Of a DNA stretch of 12,071 bases, positions 545-9,110 are shown in pieces (the stretch's first letter is position 1; each line of letters starts with the position of its first letter). The position numbers and the translations under genes are program-made. The notes beneath the pieces were generated by a model. It searched no databases, was not told the origin of the DNA, and saw only the letters and a program-made list of their open reading frames with translations. The stretch lies in UHGV virus genome UHGV-0371921; one strand, written 5' to 3'. The stretch comes from a virus.

Positions 545-573
545 TTGACACAACGCTTCAGATTTAGTATCAT
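545..573 (+). promoter_or_regulatory. sigma70-like promoter TTGACA-N17-TATCAT
   Basis: TTGACA 545-550, 17 nt spacer, TATCAT 568-573; sits upstream of the HPF-like gene. Confidence 0.5.
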
Positions 574-581
574 TGTTTTCA

Positions 582-606
582 AAGAGGGTTTGGTTCCCTC
601 TTCTTT
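582..606 (+). other. stem-loop in 5' leader (AAGAGGG / CCCTCTT, 7 bp stem, 7 nt loop) followed by TCTTT
   Basis: Perfect inverted repeat 582-588 / 596-602 just after the predicted start site; possible attenuator or leader structure. Confidence 0.4.
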
Positions 607-620
607 AAAAGGAACACGTT

Positions 621-938
621 ATGCAAATTGAGATCACTGGCAACGTAGAAATCACCGAAGGCATGGTGTCTTTCATTTCCCACAAAATGTCAAAACTGGA
701 GCGTCTACATCCTTCTGTAAATCATGCACGTGTAAGTGTAAAAGTTGAAAATGATCACCAGGAAGTTATGGCGTTCATTTTTGACACTTCTGGAAAAGAA
801 GTTATTGCCAAAGCTAAGGGCAGTGATGCTTACGAGGCAACTGACCGTATGGTGGATGTTGCAGCACGTCAGCTGGCTAAATGCGGTGGAAAGAAAGGTA
901 AAGGGAAAGGCAAAGTAAAGATTGACTTTGGAGAATGA
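621..938 (+). CDS. hpf: ribosome hibernation promoting factor-like protein (RaiA/HPF/YfiA, S30AE family) with Lys/Gly-rich C-terminal tail
   Basis: MQIEITGNVEITE...KLE...VSVKVE...GKEVIAKAKGSDAYEATDRMVDVAARQLAK matches by eye E. coli Hpf (MQLNITGNNVEITE...KLE...VVLKVE...GGEIHASAEGQDMYAAIDGLIDKLARQLTK). Weak SD AAGGA; own promoter at 545-573. Confidence 0.7.
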   Translation: MQIEITGNVEITEGMVSFISHKMSKLERLHPSVNHARVSVKVENDHQEVMAFIFDTSGKEVIAKAKGSDAYEATDRMVDVAARQLAKCGGKKGKGKGKVKIDFGE

Positions 939-947
939 GGTGCTACA

Positions 948-1049
948 ATGGGCGTGATTAAGAAATTAGTCCCAAATGTAGAGATTGCATGCTTTGAAAT
1001 TATGTTTGCAATCGCAGTTGTAGTTAATGTGTTAGGTTACGGCTATTAA
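948..1049 (+). CDS. small hydrophobic peptide (33 aa), not in ORF track (below size cutoff)
   Basis: ATG 948 with GAGGTG 6 nt upstream; MGVIKKLVPNVEIACFEIMFAIAVVVNVLGYGY has a hydrophobic C-terminal half; fills the gap between flanking genes. Confidence 0.4.
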   Translation: MGVIKKLVPNVEIACFEIMFAIAVVVNVLGYGY

Positions 1050-1075: not shown

Positions 1076-1345
1076 ATGAAAATTAAATTATTCAAAACTG
1101 AGCTGGCAGACAAAAACTGTGGACTGGTTGAAGGCATGATTGTCGAAGCACAACCAGTTGACTATATGAAGGTGGTTCGTGATGCCCTTGGTGAAGGTTT
1201 TGATCTGATGGAGCCAGCTCTGCGAGAAGATGTTATCGAGATGGCTAAAAAGCACACACCTGAAGGAATGGTGGTGTTTGTTGCACCAGGTAACGGAGAG
1301 GAGTTGATTGTAACTCCGGATGTGTATGAGATTGTAGAGGAATAA
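1076..1345 (+). CDS. hypothetical small acidic protein (89 aa); paralog of the 2512..2769 product
   Basis: ATG 1076 with GAGGAG 8 nt upstream; shares MKIKL start and C-terminal VFV.PGNGEELIVTPDVYEIVEE-like motif with the 2512..2769 product. Confidence 0.65.
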   Translation: MKIKLFKTELADKNCGLVEGMIVEAQPVDYMKVVRDALGEGFDLMEPALREDVIEMAKKHTPEGMVVFVAPGNGEELIVTPDVYEIVEE

Positions 1346-6438: not shown

Positions 6439-6532
6439 CGCACAATTAGCTGCCCGGCCAAAGTGCTGGAAGCGCACCTATAACACATCTTTCAACTAAA
6501 TTTCCCACCACCACAATCACTTACCTTCCACA

Positions 6533-6565
6533 CATGACTGTTTGCTTGTTTAGTGAGCAGTCATG
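6533..6565 (+). other. inverted repeat CATGACTG-N17-CAGTCATG immediately upstream of a promoter
   Basis: 8 bp arms at 6533-6540 and 6558-6565. Confidence 0.4.
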
Positions 6566-6567
6566 CC

Positions 6568-6595
6568 TTGACATTCTTGCCTATCCTGATAAAAT
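6568..6595 (+). promoter_or_regulatory. sigma70-like promoter TTGACA-N16-TAAAAT reading into the ORF-free zone
   Basis: TTGACA 6568-6573, 16 nt spacer, TAAAAT 6590-6595; no ORF with a ribosome binding site follows. Confidence 0.45.
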
Positions 6596-7119
6596 TAAGT
6601 TCTTCTCTTTTCTTTTACCGAGTAATTCGGGTTTTCTGTTCTCTTCGGTTTGAAGGGGTATGGAGATACACCTGAGTGAACAGGGTGAACAACCGAACCA
6701 TTGGCTATGGCATTAGCATGGCGAAGCGGACGGGTGACGAAAGAGGGGCCGGAGGACACCAGTCACTGCCATATGATATATGGGTGATAACCTGAAGAGT
6801 CTGAATAAGTGTTTAAGTACCAGTCAGAGGAAAAGGTGAATGGTAGCCGAAGGGGAGGGGGGTTTCTTGTATCTTTAATTTGTATATTATGTATACACTT
6901 GTAAACCAATCTCATCTGAATCTGTTTACCACACAAAGCGAATAGAGACAAATATTACCTATTAAACTTGAATTATTTATAGAAAATACCGCAACACCAC
7001 TTAAGTCTTTGATTTTACACACAAATCCTACAGATATTCAGCCTCCCTATTTAACATACCTGTAACATATTCCATACTCTACCTGCCTGATCAATTTACC
7101 CAACTACATCCCCATATTT

Positions 7120-7350
7120 TCCCTGTCTGTACTACCCCTGCCCCGCCGGGAGTCCCGTCATATCTGGCTTTCCAGCAAATATCACACCCACAAATATCAT
7201 TGCCTGAAGAGGGTTTCATCCCATAATACATACCTTGCCTGAAGATCGCTTCATACACCACGTAAATTTTTTAATTGACCTGCAATTTCTCCTCAGATAT
7301 CCCCCTGTCCCGCCGGAGAGGTTGTCTTTTCCCACACAGACCTGAAGAGT
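7120..7350. repeat. degenerate ~175 bp duplication carrying CCCTG(C/T)CCCGCCGG and CCTGAAGAG motifs
   Basis: CCCTGCCCCGCCGGGAG at 7134-7150 versus CCCTGTCCCGCCGGAG at 7302-7317; CCTGAAGAG at 7203-7211 and 7341-7349 (also CCTGAAGAT at 7238-7246). Confidence 0.5.
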
Positions 7351-7544
7351 CAGTCAGAAATATCTGAATGGGCCCAGTTCTGCCCTGTCATGAGCGGTAG
7401 CGACTGGAGTGCTGCCAGGCGGACGGAATGGGAATACTTCTCATTCTTATAATAATTCTCAAATATCGAGGCAGTGAGGCAAATTAATAGGTGAGGCCGT
7501 TCACACAGTGGCACAACATTTGCAATCTATTTTGTGAGGGTGAA

Positions 7545-7579
7545 TGAGAATACCTATCATTGTGAGAATCTTTATCATT
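7545..7579. repeat. imperfect tandem repeat TGAGAAT(ACC/CTT)TATCATT x2
   Basis: Copies at 7545-7561 and 7563-7579, 14 of 17 positions identical. Confidence 0.5.
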
Positions 7580-7933
7580 ACGGGCAATTTAACATAATAC
7601 CCATTATGCGCACCACTGGCGATACATACAGGGATTGATAACATAGGTTACTGTTTACGCACATAACAATTATATTTCTTATTATTTGTGGGGGGATATA
7701 GTTAGCAGCCAATAGATTAGATATTGACCTGCAGACTTCTGACCGTCCAGACGTCTAAACGCCCACACAACAAGGATTATACATACAACACTGAATGTAA
7801 ACAGGGCCGCAAAAATGCTACCATACAAGCTTGTAAATTTTTCATGCAGCACTTGACAAAGAGGAGAAAAACTTGTCTGACATAATATGACACTTTAAGC
7901 ACATTAAACACACTGAACATAATTGACATGCAT

Positions 7934-8038
7934 GACTGTTTACGCTGTCACTATTCACGCTATTACTATTCGCTCGCTTACTGTTCATGACCTTTACTGT
8001 TTACATTCCCAATAGTTTACATAGCTTACTGTTAACGT
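7934..8038. repeat. iteron-like cluster of ACTGTTTAC / TTACTGTT direct repeats
   Basis: Exact ACTGTTTAC at 7935-7943 and 7996-8004 (also 7650-7658 and 8472-8480 outside the cluster); variants TTACTGTTCA 7978-7987, TAGTTTACA 8013-8021, TTACTGTTAAC 8026-8036; all in one orientation. Confidence 0.6.
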
Positions 8039-8064
8039 ATAGATTATTTACTCAAAAATGATAA

Positions 8065-8084
8065 GCCATGCCATTCGTTTGCAT
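8065..8084. repeat. 20 bp direct repeat GCCATGCCATTCGTTTGCAT, left copy
   Basis: Identical 20-mer recurs at 8296-8315. Confidence 0.8.
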
Positions 8085-8130
8085 GACAATAATTATACAT
8101 GACAATAATCGCACTGATTATAATTAGCAT

Positions 8131-8282
8131 GACATAATATAAAAGCAGGGCAACTATTAGCAGATCTATAGTTGCCTTGCTTGTTATGTCATGATTAACT
8201 GAATACAAGGCAACTATGATCTGATTAATAGATTGCAGACAAACTATCACGGGGGTGATGGTTACTGCTTTTATATTATGTC
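8131..8282. repeat. 16 bp inverted repeat pair GACATAATATAAAAGC (8131-8146) / GCTTTTATATTATGTC (8267-8282) enclosing the palindrome
   Basis: Exact reverse complements. Confidence 0.75.
8149..8176. repeat. 28 bp palindrome GGCAACTAT-N10-ATAGTTGCC (candidate protein-binding site)
   Basis: 9 bp arms are exact reverse complements; further GGCAACTAT copies at 8209-8217 (direct) and 8314-8322 (inverted); 12-mer CAAGGCAACTAT is shared by the arm at 8168-8179 and the copy at 8206-8217. Confidence 0.75.
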
Positions 8283-8295
8283 GCGACTCCGTCGC

Positions 8296-8315
8296 GCCAT
8301 GCCATTCGTTTGCAT
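8296..8315. repeat. 20 bp direct repeat GCCATGCCATTCGTTTGCAT, right copy
   Basis: Identical to 8065-8084; preceded by small hairpin CGCGAC-TCC-GTCGCG (8282-8296). Confidence 0.8.
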
Positions 8316-8929
8316 AGTTGCCTTATTGTTACAGATAGAATAATTGTATTGTTAATTATTTCTTATCTTTCTATTAGTCATCTAATGATTCCAGTTAGTA
8401 TAGTAACGTACAGTAAACATTAGACGACTAAAGATTTCTCTGCTTATGGTAACCTAACGTGACAATTCCAGACTGTTTACGAAAAATGTTGACACTTGGG
8501 CCGATTTATGTTATGCAGTTTACACGAATAATTATTTTATGCAGGTATTGACTATTCCGTTATTCTATGGTTGGAATAAATGCTTAGCAGGCTATAGAAT
8601 GGCGAGCGTACGTAAATTCTGAGATCTGGCGGCTATAGTTATACTCGATTTTTCACGTAGAAAACGCTTTTGTAGTTATGTAAGTGTATGACTTATAAGA
8701 ATTTTTAGTTGTTGACAAGCTATTGAAGATATGCATCAGGTTAAATTTTGTGCAAATGCTGCATTACGTGCAATTTTGGAAGGAAAAACGTGTAAAAATG
8801 GCCCTGCTACCACACAATGAAAAATTATGCAATAGTTATTTTATATGTATGTTTGTACAGTGGGGTTAATTGCTGGCTTGTTGATTATTCCATTTGCCAG
8901 GCGGGGCCATTTGTGGTAGGAAAAGAGGA

Positions 8930-8958
8930 GACAAAAGAAAGGGGCTTTAAGCCCCTGA
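8930..8958 (-). terminator. intrinsic terminator of the leftward gene block (minus RNA: AGGGGCU-UAA-AGCCCCU then UUUCUUUUGUC)
   Basis: 7 bp stem plus U tract on the minus strand, just downstream of the last minus-strand stop codons (8976 / 8987). Confidence 0.7.
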
Positions 8959-8975
8959 CCGTGCACCTTGTTGTA

Positions 8976-9110
8976 TTATTTGTTGCTCATCCAGTTTTCC
9001 CAAGCTGCCTGATAATCTGCCTCACTACGGCGGATCTCTTCTTGCTCTTCAAGGCGGATCTCTTCTTCCAGGTACCCCAAGATGTCAGCCTTTTTGGTCT
9101 GGCGTAACAT
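8976..9110 (-). CDS. alternative -1 frame ORF (44 aa, MLRQTKKADILGYLEEEIRLEEQEEIRRSEADYQAAWENWMSNK), possibly the true C-terminal part of the 9238 gene
   Basis: Protein-like acidic sequence with EEEIR repeat; no strong SD of its own; fully overlapped by the track ORF in another frame. Confidence 0.3.
   Translation of the reverse strand: MLRQTKKADILGYLEEEIRLEEQEEIRRSEADYQAAWENWMSNK

Follow-up and report, generated by a model that had tools for sequence, protein, structure and literature searches.

A diverged HPF/RaiA-family protein of rV5-like coliphages with replaced ribosome-contact residues and a core under purifying selection

The rV5-like coliphages encode a protein that is firmly supported as a homolog of the HPF/RaiA family over the whole fold, and that is an atypical member of this family by its Pfam score. 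Its gene was examined here in a 12,071-nt stretch of viral DNA (UHGV virus genome UHGV-0371921, referred to as the window) that matches rV5-like E. coli myoviruses (genus Vequintavirus) at 95–97% identity across 96–99% of the window. Databases and literature already contain the gene, its promoter and the concept of a phage-encoded HPF: annotation of the gene goes back to the deposition of the rV5 genome, and Mizuno et al. described it in 2019 and tested its product, so that finding it in the window is a rediscovery. What is new here is the outlier score of the protein, the replacement of residues that contact the ribosome, purifying selection on the core and a fast-changing tail. The features discussed below are located in Table 1.

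Table 1. Positions in the window of the phage HPF gene and of the features in and around it.
Feature	Position	Strand	Remarks
Predicted sigma-70-type promoter (P144 of rV5)	545-573	+	TTGACA, 17-nt spacer, TATCAT
7-bp stem-loop AAGAGGG / CCCTCTT	582-602	+	Predicted transcript 5′ end; weak feature
Shine-Dalgarno-like AAGGA	609-613	+	7 nt 5′ of the ATG; from sequence
HPF/RaiA-family ORF	621-938	+	ATG start, TGA end, 105 aa
HPF-fold core of the phage protein	621-881	+	Pfam/TIGR scores, AlphaFold2 model, Foldseek, pN/pS
C-terminal tail, residues 88-105 CGGKKGKGKGKVKIDFGE	882-935	+	Basic, Gly-rich, predicted disordered from residue 90
Second promoter-like site	922-949	+	TTGACT, 16-nt spacer, TACAAT; overlaps the I-D-F codons of the tail and the start codon (ATG) of the small ORF that follows
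Stop codon TGA	936-938	+	

The gene, its records and its promoters

The counterpart in phage rV5 is ORF144 (gp144, ABI79209; record DQ832317), labelled 'sigma 54 modulation factor', which according to the Pfam description is an old name for the HPF family. Annotations of the gene exist in over 100 GenBank records, where it also goes by hpf, ribosome hibernation factor or RaiA. The rV5 protein and the window protein share 97% amino acid identity, a length of 105 aa, an identical tail, the position of the promoter and the place in the genome, with the window variant differing by three substitutions (V33A, H35Y and T56N). A protein identical to that of the window is present in phages DrSchubert and Mangalyan. 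Virus-encoded HPFs were described by Mizuno et al. for rV5, FV3, JES-2013, FFH2 and O157 typing phage 14 (PMC6375957), and a second paper mentions hpf in five more rV5-like phages 'as already described'. The literature yielded neither functional work on a phage HPF later than Mizuno et al. 2019 nor transcriptomes or proteomes of infected cells.

A scan of IMG/VR for relatives gave two loci and GenBank records were therefore sampled instead. Using tblastn on 50,697 records, the protein was found in 118 phage records at 94–100% identity and elsewhere only in a Salmonella chromosome, and when E. coli HPF was used as the query approximately 118 of the 130 matching phage records belonged to the rV5-like genus. 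The records of ime, nomo, ECP32 and APCEc02 give the ORF at window positions 1076–1345 as a second 'sigma 54 modulation factor', a label that we rejected as a propagated mis-annotation since this ORF has no Pfam match. In the APCEc02 record, the 'sigma 54 modulation factor' label is on the wrong gene.

A reading made from the sequence alone had given the gene its own promoter in an early-gene context, and the promoter prediction was borne out: it fits the sigma-70 consensus at 11 of 12 positions, and the gene sits within a block of small genes. The 12 kb window contains a single exact TTGACA-N17-TATNAT, where 0.01 would be expected by chance, both hexamers are conserved in 15 genus members, and rV5 record DQ832317 has the sigma-70 promoter P144 annotated at the equivalent position. 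Further downstream, the record of phage Murica has a ribosome-binding site annotated at the place matching the AAGGA. Early gene status is suggested by the promoter type and the gene context; transcription would start from the gene's own sigma-70 promoter using unmodified host RNA polymerase, and for this reason expression early in infection is probable.

The second promoter-like site matches the consensus at 10 of 12 positions and has a TG 5′ of its second hexamer. Among L004, L013 and L017 its hexamers are unchanged or improved to TATAAT with a variable spacer, and PhagePromoter predicts a promoter at the corresponding site in phage Gotham. Since the I-D-F codons of the tail overlap with this site, conservation at the end of the tail may partly be at the DNA level. 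The stem-loop in the 5′ leader was considered as a regulatory element and rejected, as its energy (−9.9 kcal/mol) is no better than that of shuffled sequences (z = −0.94, not significant) and the stem, kept in most genus members, is weakened in several and missing from divergent lineage L005. No tRNA was found in the window, nor did any Rfam family reach the gathering threshold there, and a PADLOC search for defence and anti-defence systems returned nothing for the HPF gene or the two ORFs downstream. Paralogy of the small neighbouring ORFs was also discarded, with BLASTP giving one short common motif only, shared by 54–230 and 2037–2432.

Family membership, ribosome contacts and the tail

Homology to HPF and RaiA, proposed earlier by eye, was confirmed with profile searches in which the protein scored above the curated cut-off of Pfam PF02482 (Ribosomal_S30AE; E=4.4e-13, 50.2 bits with a cut-off of 23.7, residues 3–88) and passed that of TIGR00741 (50 bits, cut-off 40.9). 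A sequence search of the PDB matched E. coli HPF chains at E ~1e-12 over residues 1–89, with an identity of 37/88 (42%). An AlphaFold2 model made from a 122-sequence alignment places strands at residues 2–7, 33–43, 46–55 and 60–67 and helices at 13–29 and 70–89, with a mean pLDDT of 81 (86–93 at residues 1–80, below 50 at residues 90–105). The best 33 Foldseek matches in the PDB were all HPF, RaiA or protein Y, and the rmsd given by Foldseek was 0.9 Å to V. cholerae HPF and 1.1–1.5 Å to E. coli HPF over 89 columns, so that the proposed HPF/RaiA fold is upheld by the structure prediction as well.

HPF is the best-matching subfamily, though the score against the short HPF equivalog (NCBIfam NF007780 / PRK10470) is 57.5 bits and below the cut-off of 125. 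The RaiA/YfiA model (NCBIfam NF007654) gave 20.3 bits, far under its cut-off of 158, and the acidic extension that goes with it is not found in the phage protein. PF02482 scores are approximately 50 bits in both of the phage lineages described below, compared with 81–105 in cellular HPF and RaiA. The C-terminal dimerisation domain of long HPF is absent: the protein is 105 aa long, PF02482 is its sole Pfam match and what follows is a disordered tail of 16 residues.

Two E. coli proteins are among the closest known comparisons. Short HPF (YhbH; PDB 2RQL, 6H4N, 6Y69) shares the fold with the phage protein at the identity given above and is of similar length, and both have a basic C-terminus and no C-terminal dimerisation domain; the pI is 8.7 for the phage protein and 6.5 for E. 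coli HPF. Short HPF of gammaproteobacteria sits in the decoding channel of the 30S subunit and acts with RMF to stabilise 100S dimers. In the one published test, the rV5 HPF had no effect on 100S ribosomes and did not co-purify with ribosomes (PMC6375957). RaiA (YfiA, protein Y) has the fold and the family's ribosomal site in common with the phage protein, and both have a C-terminal extension longer than that of HPF, with the longer YfiA tail reported to run toward the RMF site. No RaiA chains were among the PDB sequence matches of the phage protein at E<0.01. Given the low RaiA score, the lack of a RaiA match in the PDB and the basic tail, the name 'RaiA' that RefSeq assigns to the phage gene is generic and not specific.

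S30AE/HPF-fold proteins of approximately 110 aa are also encoded by the jumbo phages GAP32 (Cronobacter, K4F6Q6) and PBECO4 (Escherichia, L7TII8), but these have only 21–22% identity to the window protein in structural alignment, were not recovered by tblastn with the window protein and belong to PHROG 8990 as opposed to 12469. GAP32 was placed elsewhere in the HPF tree by Mizuno et al. (PMC6375957), and the jumbo-phage HPF looks like an independent acquisition.

To look at the ribosome-binding surface, contact residues known from cryo-EM of Gram-negative hibernating ribosomes (bioRxiv 10.1101/2025.10.07.680626) were mapped on the phage protein. In those structures K26, Q29 and Y30 of HPF touch 16S rRNA, with residue 30 stacking on A790; T53 and residue 62 contact m2G966; H55 and E60 contact the C-terminus of uS9; D75 is a contact residue with no partner stated; K80, R83, K87, K89 and K91 are strictly conserved basic residues on 16S rRNA; and the HPF C-terminus touches uS7 and E-site tRNA (bioRxiv 10.1101/2025.10.07.680626). 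Using E. coli numbering, the phage protein retains K23, K26, position 29 (as Arg), E60, D75, R83, K87 and K91, and keeps the hydrophobic character of residue 62. Residue 30 is replaced by Leu, T53 by Phe, K80 by Val and K89 by Gly, H55 corresponds to either Asp or Phe according to the alignment used, and one residue is deleted in the β1-α1 loop. The basic contact set of α2 and the C-terminus is therefore incomplete, with R83, K87 and K91 present and K80 and K89 gone.

The two lost lysines are nearly invariant in cellular sequences, K80 being Lys in 21/22 diverse and 119/119 gammaproteobacterial sequences and K89 in 18/22 and 119/119, respectively. Position 30, where cells have a stacking His, Tyr or Phe, and T53 are likewise nearly invariant. 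Some of positions 30, 53, 55, 60, 62 and 75 vary among cellular HPFs too. A second, divergent phage lineage (P0004, described in the next section) has Leu, Arg, Thr and Ser at positions 30, 53, 80 and 89, and the retained and lost positions coincide in both lineages, which dates the remodelling to before their split.

The tail was initially described as the last 18 residues and as basic, of low complexity and absent from E. coli Hpf. It is indeed longer, basic and of low complexity, but the sequence quoted, KCGGKKGKGKGKVKIDFGE, is 19 residues long (87–105), and E. coli HPF does have a tail, with eight residues past K87 (HKDKLKQH, net charge +2). The difference from E. coli HPF therefore comes down to about 10 extra residues and a Gly-rich composition. 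Counted past K87 in the same way, the tail is 18 residues with a net charge of +4 in the window protein, 16 residues and +3 in P0004, and 26 residues and −4 in E. coli RaiA, so that the RaiA tail is acidic and the phage tail basic. The two phage lineages share tail basicity and extra length and not tail sequence, and between them pN is 0.44 in the tail versus 0.20 in the core.

No part of the protein is more polymorphic in the genus than the tail, whose length and frame vary to give proteins of 99–106 aa. It ends in FGE, FWD or FLD across the genus, 'VK' is lost in phage YN3, and an IMG/VR contig carries the variant GKGKGKGKIDFE. Frameshifts give different ends in Murica (...GKGKAK) and APCEc02 (KCGRKKGKGERQSKD), with the APCEc02 form seen again in P0003, an independent assembly. 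All tail variants of the genus retain the proximal KCG-x-KKGKG segment. In rV5 the tail is translated to the annotated stop, as shown by detection of a VKIDFGE peptide (PMC6375957). A K-[I/W]-D-[F/Y] motif shared by both lineages was set aside as too weak, since it comprises four residues, is lost in the frameshifts and overlaps with the promoter-like site. Variable and often basic C-terminal extensions are common in cellular family members, and the phage tail is thus a variation on a family theme and no new module.

Selection and origin

The core of the protein is under strong purifying selection. Among 14 distinct sequences of the genus, the core has a pS of 0.243 and a pN of 0.014, for a pN/pS of 0.057, and L29, P31, V80 and C88, all of them derived residues, persist while their codons change synonymously. 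An exhaustive HMMER scan of 1.84 billion cluster representatives found only one close relative cluster, P0004, at 65% identity, with cellular homologs at 44% or less in the same scan. The second-best match, P0006 (1160 aa with nine matched stretches), is a PPC-domain repeat protein and was discarded as spurious. The P0004 gene is in the same position of a syntenic early block on phage-sized contigs of 125–137 kb, and only about 30% of its 7 kb region has an alignable counterpart among catalogued phages, at 74–77% nucleotide identity. Synonymous sites between the two lineages are saturated (pS 0.83), and HPF is the best-conserved gene of the block, with 64% amino acid identity compared to 38–60% for five neighbours.

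These findings bear on the age of the gene in phage. Mizuno et al. suggested that its transfer was relatively recent (PMC6375957), which is not supported by the 42% identity to E. coli HPF, the ceiling of 44% for cellular relatives, the phage-like GC content (0.425 for the gene and 0.419 for the window) or the saturated synonymous divergence. The ancestor may derive from a short HPF of gammaproteobacteria or enterobacteria, captured ahead of the split between the two phage lineages, and would have been remodelled since. In isolate YP-6 (OQ376695), codon 4 is TAA and the annotation begins at Met15, owing either to a genuine knock-out or to an error in sequencing. Barring sequencing errors, the YP-6 stop codon and the frameshifts in Murica and APCEc02 show that propagation does not require the gene, or at any rate not the distal part of the tail.

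The published expression test and possible roles

Expression of the protein in the host and ribosome profiling had been suggested as a check on the sequence-only reading, and this check has already been published once, with a negative outcome for ribosome association. Mizuno et al. expressed the rV5 protein from pBAD24 in E. coli NM522, with 1 mM arabinose overnight and continuous induction during growth to OD600 1 (PMC6375957). The protein was seen in crude extract by mass spectrometry, including the tail peptide noted above, but was not detected in purified 70S and 100S ribosomes after a 500 mM NH4Cl wash; 100S levels were unchanged and 70S profiles were normal (PMC6375957). Phage copies of host translation-machinery proteins also include bS21 of pelagiphage HTVC008M and bL12 of Salmonella phage SP-076, and these were incorporated into E. 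coli ribosomes whereas rV5 HPF was not (PMC6375957). Ribosomes were pelleted through a sucrose cushion containing 500 mM NH4Cl from cells harvested at the end of exponential phase, and Mizuno et al. themselves pointed to washing with salt and to the growth phase as what might explain the absence (PMC6375957). With these conditions in mind, the result excludes tight, salt-resistant incorporation and still allows for weaker binding. As the only experiment found none of the protein in purified ribosomes and no effect on 100S, true loss of ribosome binding is a live possibility as well. Ribosome protection or another modulation of the ribosome by the phage HPF is possible.

The best explanation, which we put forward tentatively and at a little short of even confidence, is that the protein is a diverged occupant of the HPF/RaiA site which binds weakly, in a manner sensitive to salt, and competes with or replaces the host factors. 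It would share with HPF and RaiA their binding site in the head-body channel of the 30S subunit (A and P sites), on host ribosomes that are idle, with an affinity that is probably reduced and salt-labile compared to theirs. The Lys-rich tail may partly stand in for K80 and K89, and could make electrostatic contacts of a non-specific kind as it extends to the E site, uS7 and the RMF region. At its most speculative, this explanation would have the protein compete with or substitute for host HPF, RaiA and RMF, and the ribosomes of slow-growing or starved hosts would be held as protected, quickly reusable 70S with no outright shut-off. The negative result of Mizuno et al. is compatible with weak ribosome binding, but loss of K80 and K89 could abolish binding rather than merely weaken it.

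Mizuno et al. put forward an anti-hibernation decoy that competes with HPF and RMF and prevents or dissolves 100S, freeing the ribosomes of a dormant host for phage messages (PMC6375957). A tail reaching 10 residues beyond that of E. coli HPF could extend into the RMF pocket like the YfiA tail, and a weakened contact surface would ease displacement. However, 100S ribosomes were unaffected in the expressing cells, even if they were scarce at the growth phase sampled (PMC6375957), and any occupant of the HPF site would itself be inhibitory, and we consider a decoy unlikely while continuing to take it seriously. It overlaps with the weak site occupancy favoured above, and the difference is chiefly one of emphasis.

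The protein could instead have taken on a new function, using the dsRBD-like HPF scaffold and the basic tail off the ribosome to bind another phage or host RNA or protein. This would agree with the absence of rV5 HPF from purified ribosomes (PMC6375957), with the replacement in both lineages of K80, K89, residue 30 and T53 by residues that are under purifying selection, and with a Pfam score half that of cellular members. That said, many contacts are conserved (K23, K26, D75, R83 and K87), binding was found negative after washing at high salt, and nothing hints at another partner, with PADLOC empty and the Pfam and PHROGs matches being only HPF-family or unannotated. We therefore regard a change of function as improbable to much the same degree as the decoy.

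A more elaborate possibility, which we find doubtful, is that of a re-engineered factor, no longer one for hibernation as the host uses it, in which selection would have removed the tightest rRNA contacts (K80, K89 and residue 30) and added a flexible oligo-Lys tail. Such a protein would bind the decoding channel reversibly with its tail in the RMF/anti-Shine-Dalgarno pocket, and would block or dissolve host 100S, or else protect the A site and 16S rRNA against ribosome-directed toxins and nucleases while dormant cells are being infected. If true, it would represent a viral counter-measure to ribosome dormancy or to a ribosome-targeting defence.

Shut-off of the host, in which tight binding at the decoding region blocks host translation during takeover, was one of the roles initially suggested, and it fared poorly against the published data. 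An HPF-family fold that retains R83, K87, K23 and D75, together with a strong predicted promoter of its own, would suit such a factor. Nevertheless, arabinose-induced cells reached OD600 1, their 70S profiles were normal and the protein did not associate with ribosomes (PMC6375957), and normal growth under continuous induction argues against potent shut-off. Key contact residues are also gone, and an occupant of the A and P sites cannot distinguish ribosomes bound for host messages from those bound for phage messages, leaving shut-off very unlikely. Least credible of all is a neutral passenger or decaying gene with no role in infection, since the nonsense codon in YP-6, the frameshifted tails of Murica and APCEc02 and the lack of an expression phenotype (PMC6375957) have to be set against a within-genus pN/pS of 0.057, a retained position with conservation above that of the neighbours across saturated synonymous divergence, and presence in 118 phage records.

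What these results leave is a puzzle, in that a hibernation factor which has diverged is maintained by strong purifying selection in a genus of virulent coliphages, although the one expression test saw no association with ribosomes. The pattern of remodelling at the level of single residues leads to testable hypotheses and precisely defined mutants. If the protein is active on the ribosomes of starved hosts, it would bear on phage infection of non-growing bacteria, and with that on phage therapy and gut ecology.

Promoter-like sites and small genes around HPF

The HPF gene ends within a promoter-like site whose location, with that of the other features discussed here, is listed in the table. 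Among the relatives the hexamers of this site are either unchanged or bettered to TATAAT while the spacer is variable, and in the divergent lineage, where HPF is only 64-65% identical, a promoter-like TTTACA motif is found immediately 3′ of the HPF stop codon. HPF may therefore be a single-gene unit with promoters on both sides.

Features of the HPF neighbourhood and of the region without annotated CDS (window coordinates)
Feature	Position	Strand	Description
Promoter-like site	922-949	+	TTGACT-16-TACAAT; overlaps the final HPF tail codons and the start codon (ATG) of the ORF that follows
Hydrophobic ORF	948-1049	+	33 aa, MGVIKKLVPNVEIACFEIMFAIAVVVNVLGYGY; immediately 3′ of HPF
AT-rich segment	8001-8500		GC 0.34; inside 6440-9040
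Exact direct repeat	8065-8084 and 8296-8315		20 nt; in AT-rich segment
Perfect inverted repeat	8131-8148 / 8265-8282		18 nt; in AT-rich segment
Hairpin	8143-8157 / 8168-8182		In AT-rich segment

The hydrophobic ORF is annotated in the majority of relatives, and its product, which gave no match in family searches, may be a small membrane peptide. A motif of 33 residues, roughly H-P-x-S-x-x-x-x-Y-W-x-x-x-x-x-x-W-T-P, occurs in two further ORFs on the + strand, 54-230 and 2037-2432 (42% identity, E=1e-6); no other paralogy was detectable among the 17 + strand ORFs of the block.

HPF variants in relatives

Phage YP-6 (L013, OQ376695, 251-568) carries TAA in place of GAA at HPF codon 4, and its annotated HPF begins at Met15, a start from which strand β1 would be missing. 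Either the gene is naturally knocked out in this phage or the stop codon comes from a sequencing error. At codon 8, some members of the genus (phages C14, nomo and Murica; L009-L011) read GNNVEIT like E. coli HPF, whereas the window reads GNVEIT, a one-codon indel in the β1-α1 loop. In cellular HPFs this loop touches 16S rRNA.

Mis-annotations and a doubtful host label

The 89-aa ORF at 1076-1345 (+) is named ‘sigma 54 modulation factor’ in the records of ime, nomo, ECP32 and APCEc02, and a Pfam search with its product gave no match. In APCEc02 the real HPF gene is ‘hypothetical’ and the counterpart of 1076-1345 bears the name; since the label was displaced there from the true HPF to its neighbour, the error appears to have spread from APCEc02. 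Naming HPF itself ‘ATP-dependent protease La Type I’ (OR062528, MT884008-MT884010) is a clear mis-annotation. The HPF region is also contained in 18 UNVERIFIED ‘Campylobacter phage’ GenBank records (MG0656xx, e.g., loci L009 and L014), where its protein identity to E. coli rV5-like phages is 94-98%. These records are assigned to Vequintavirinae, and their host label looks doubtful.

A region without annotated CDS

Roughly 2.6 kb of the window (6440-9040) is without an annotated CDS in the records of the relatives rV5 or ime. The longest ORF within it is at most 72 aa, and tRNA and Rfam searches of the region found no match. It is flanked by convergent gene blocks, the cumulative GC skew reaches its maximum here, and its AT-rich segment holds the repeats and hairpin listed in the table. 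The region may serve as an origin or have a regulatory role.
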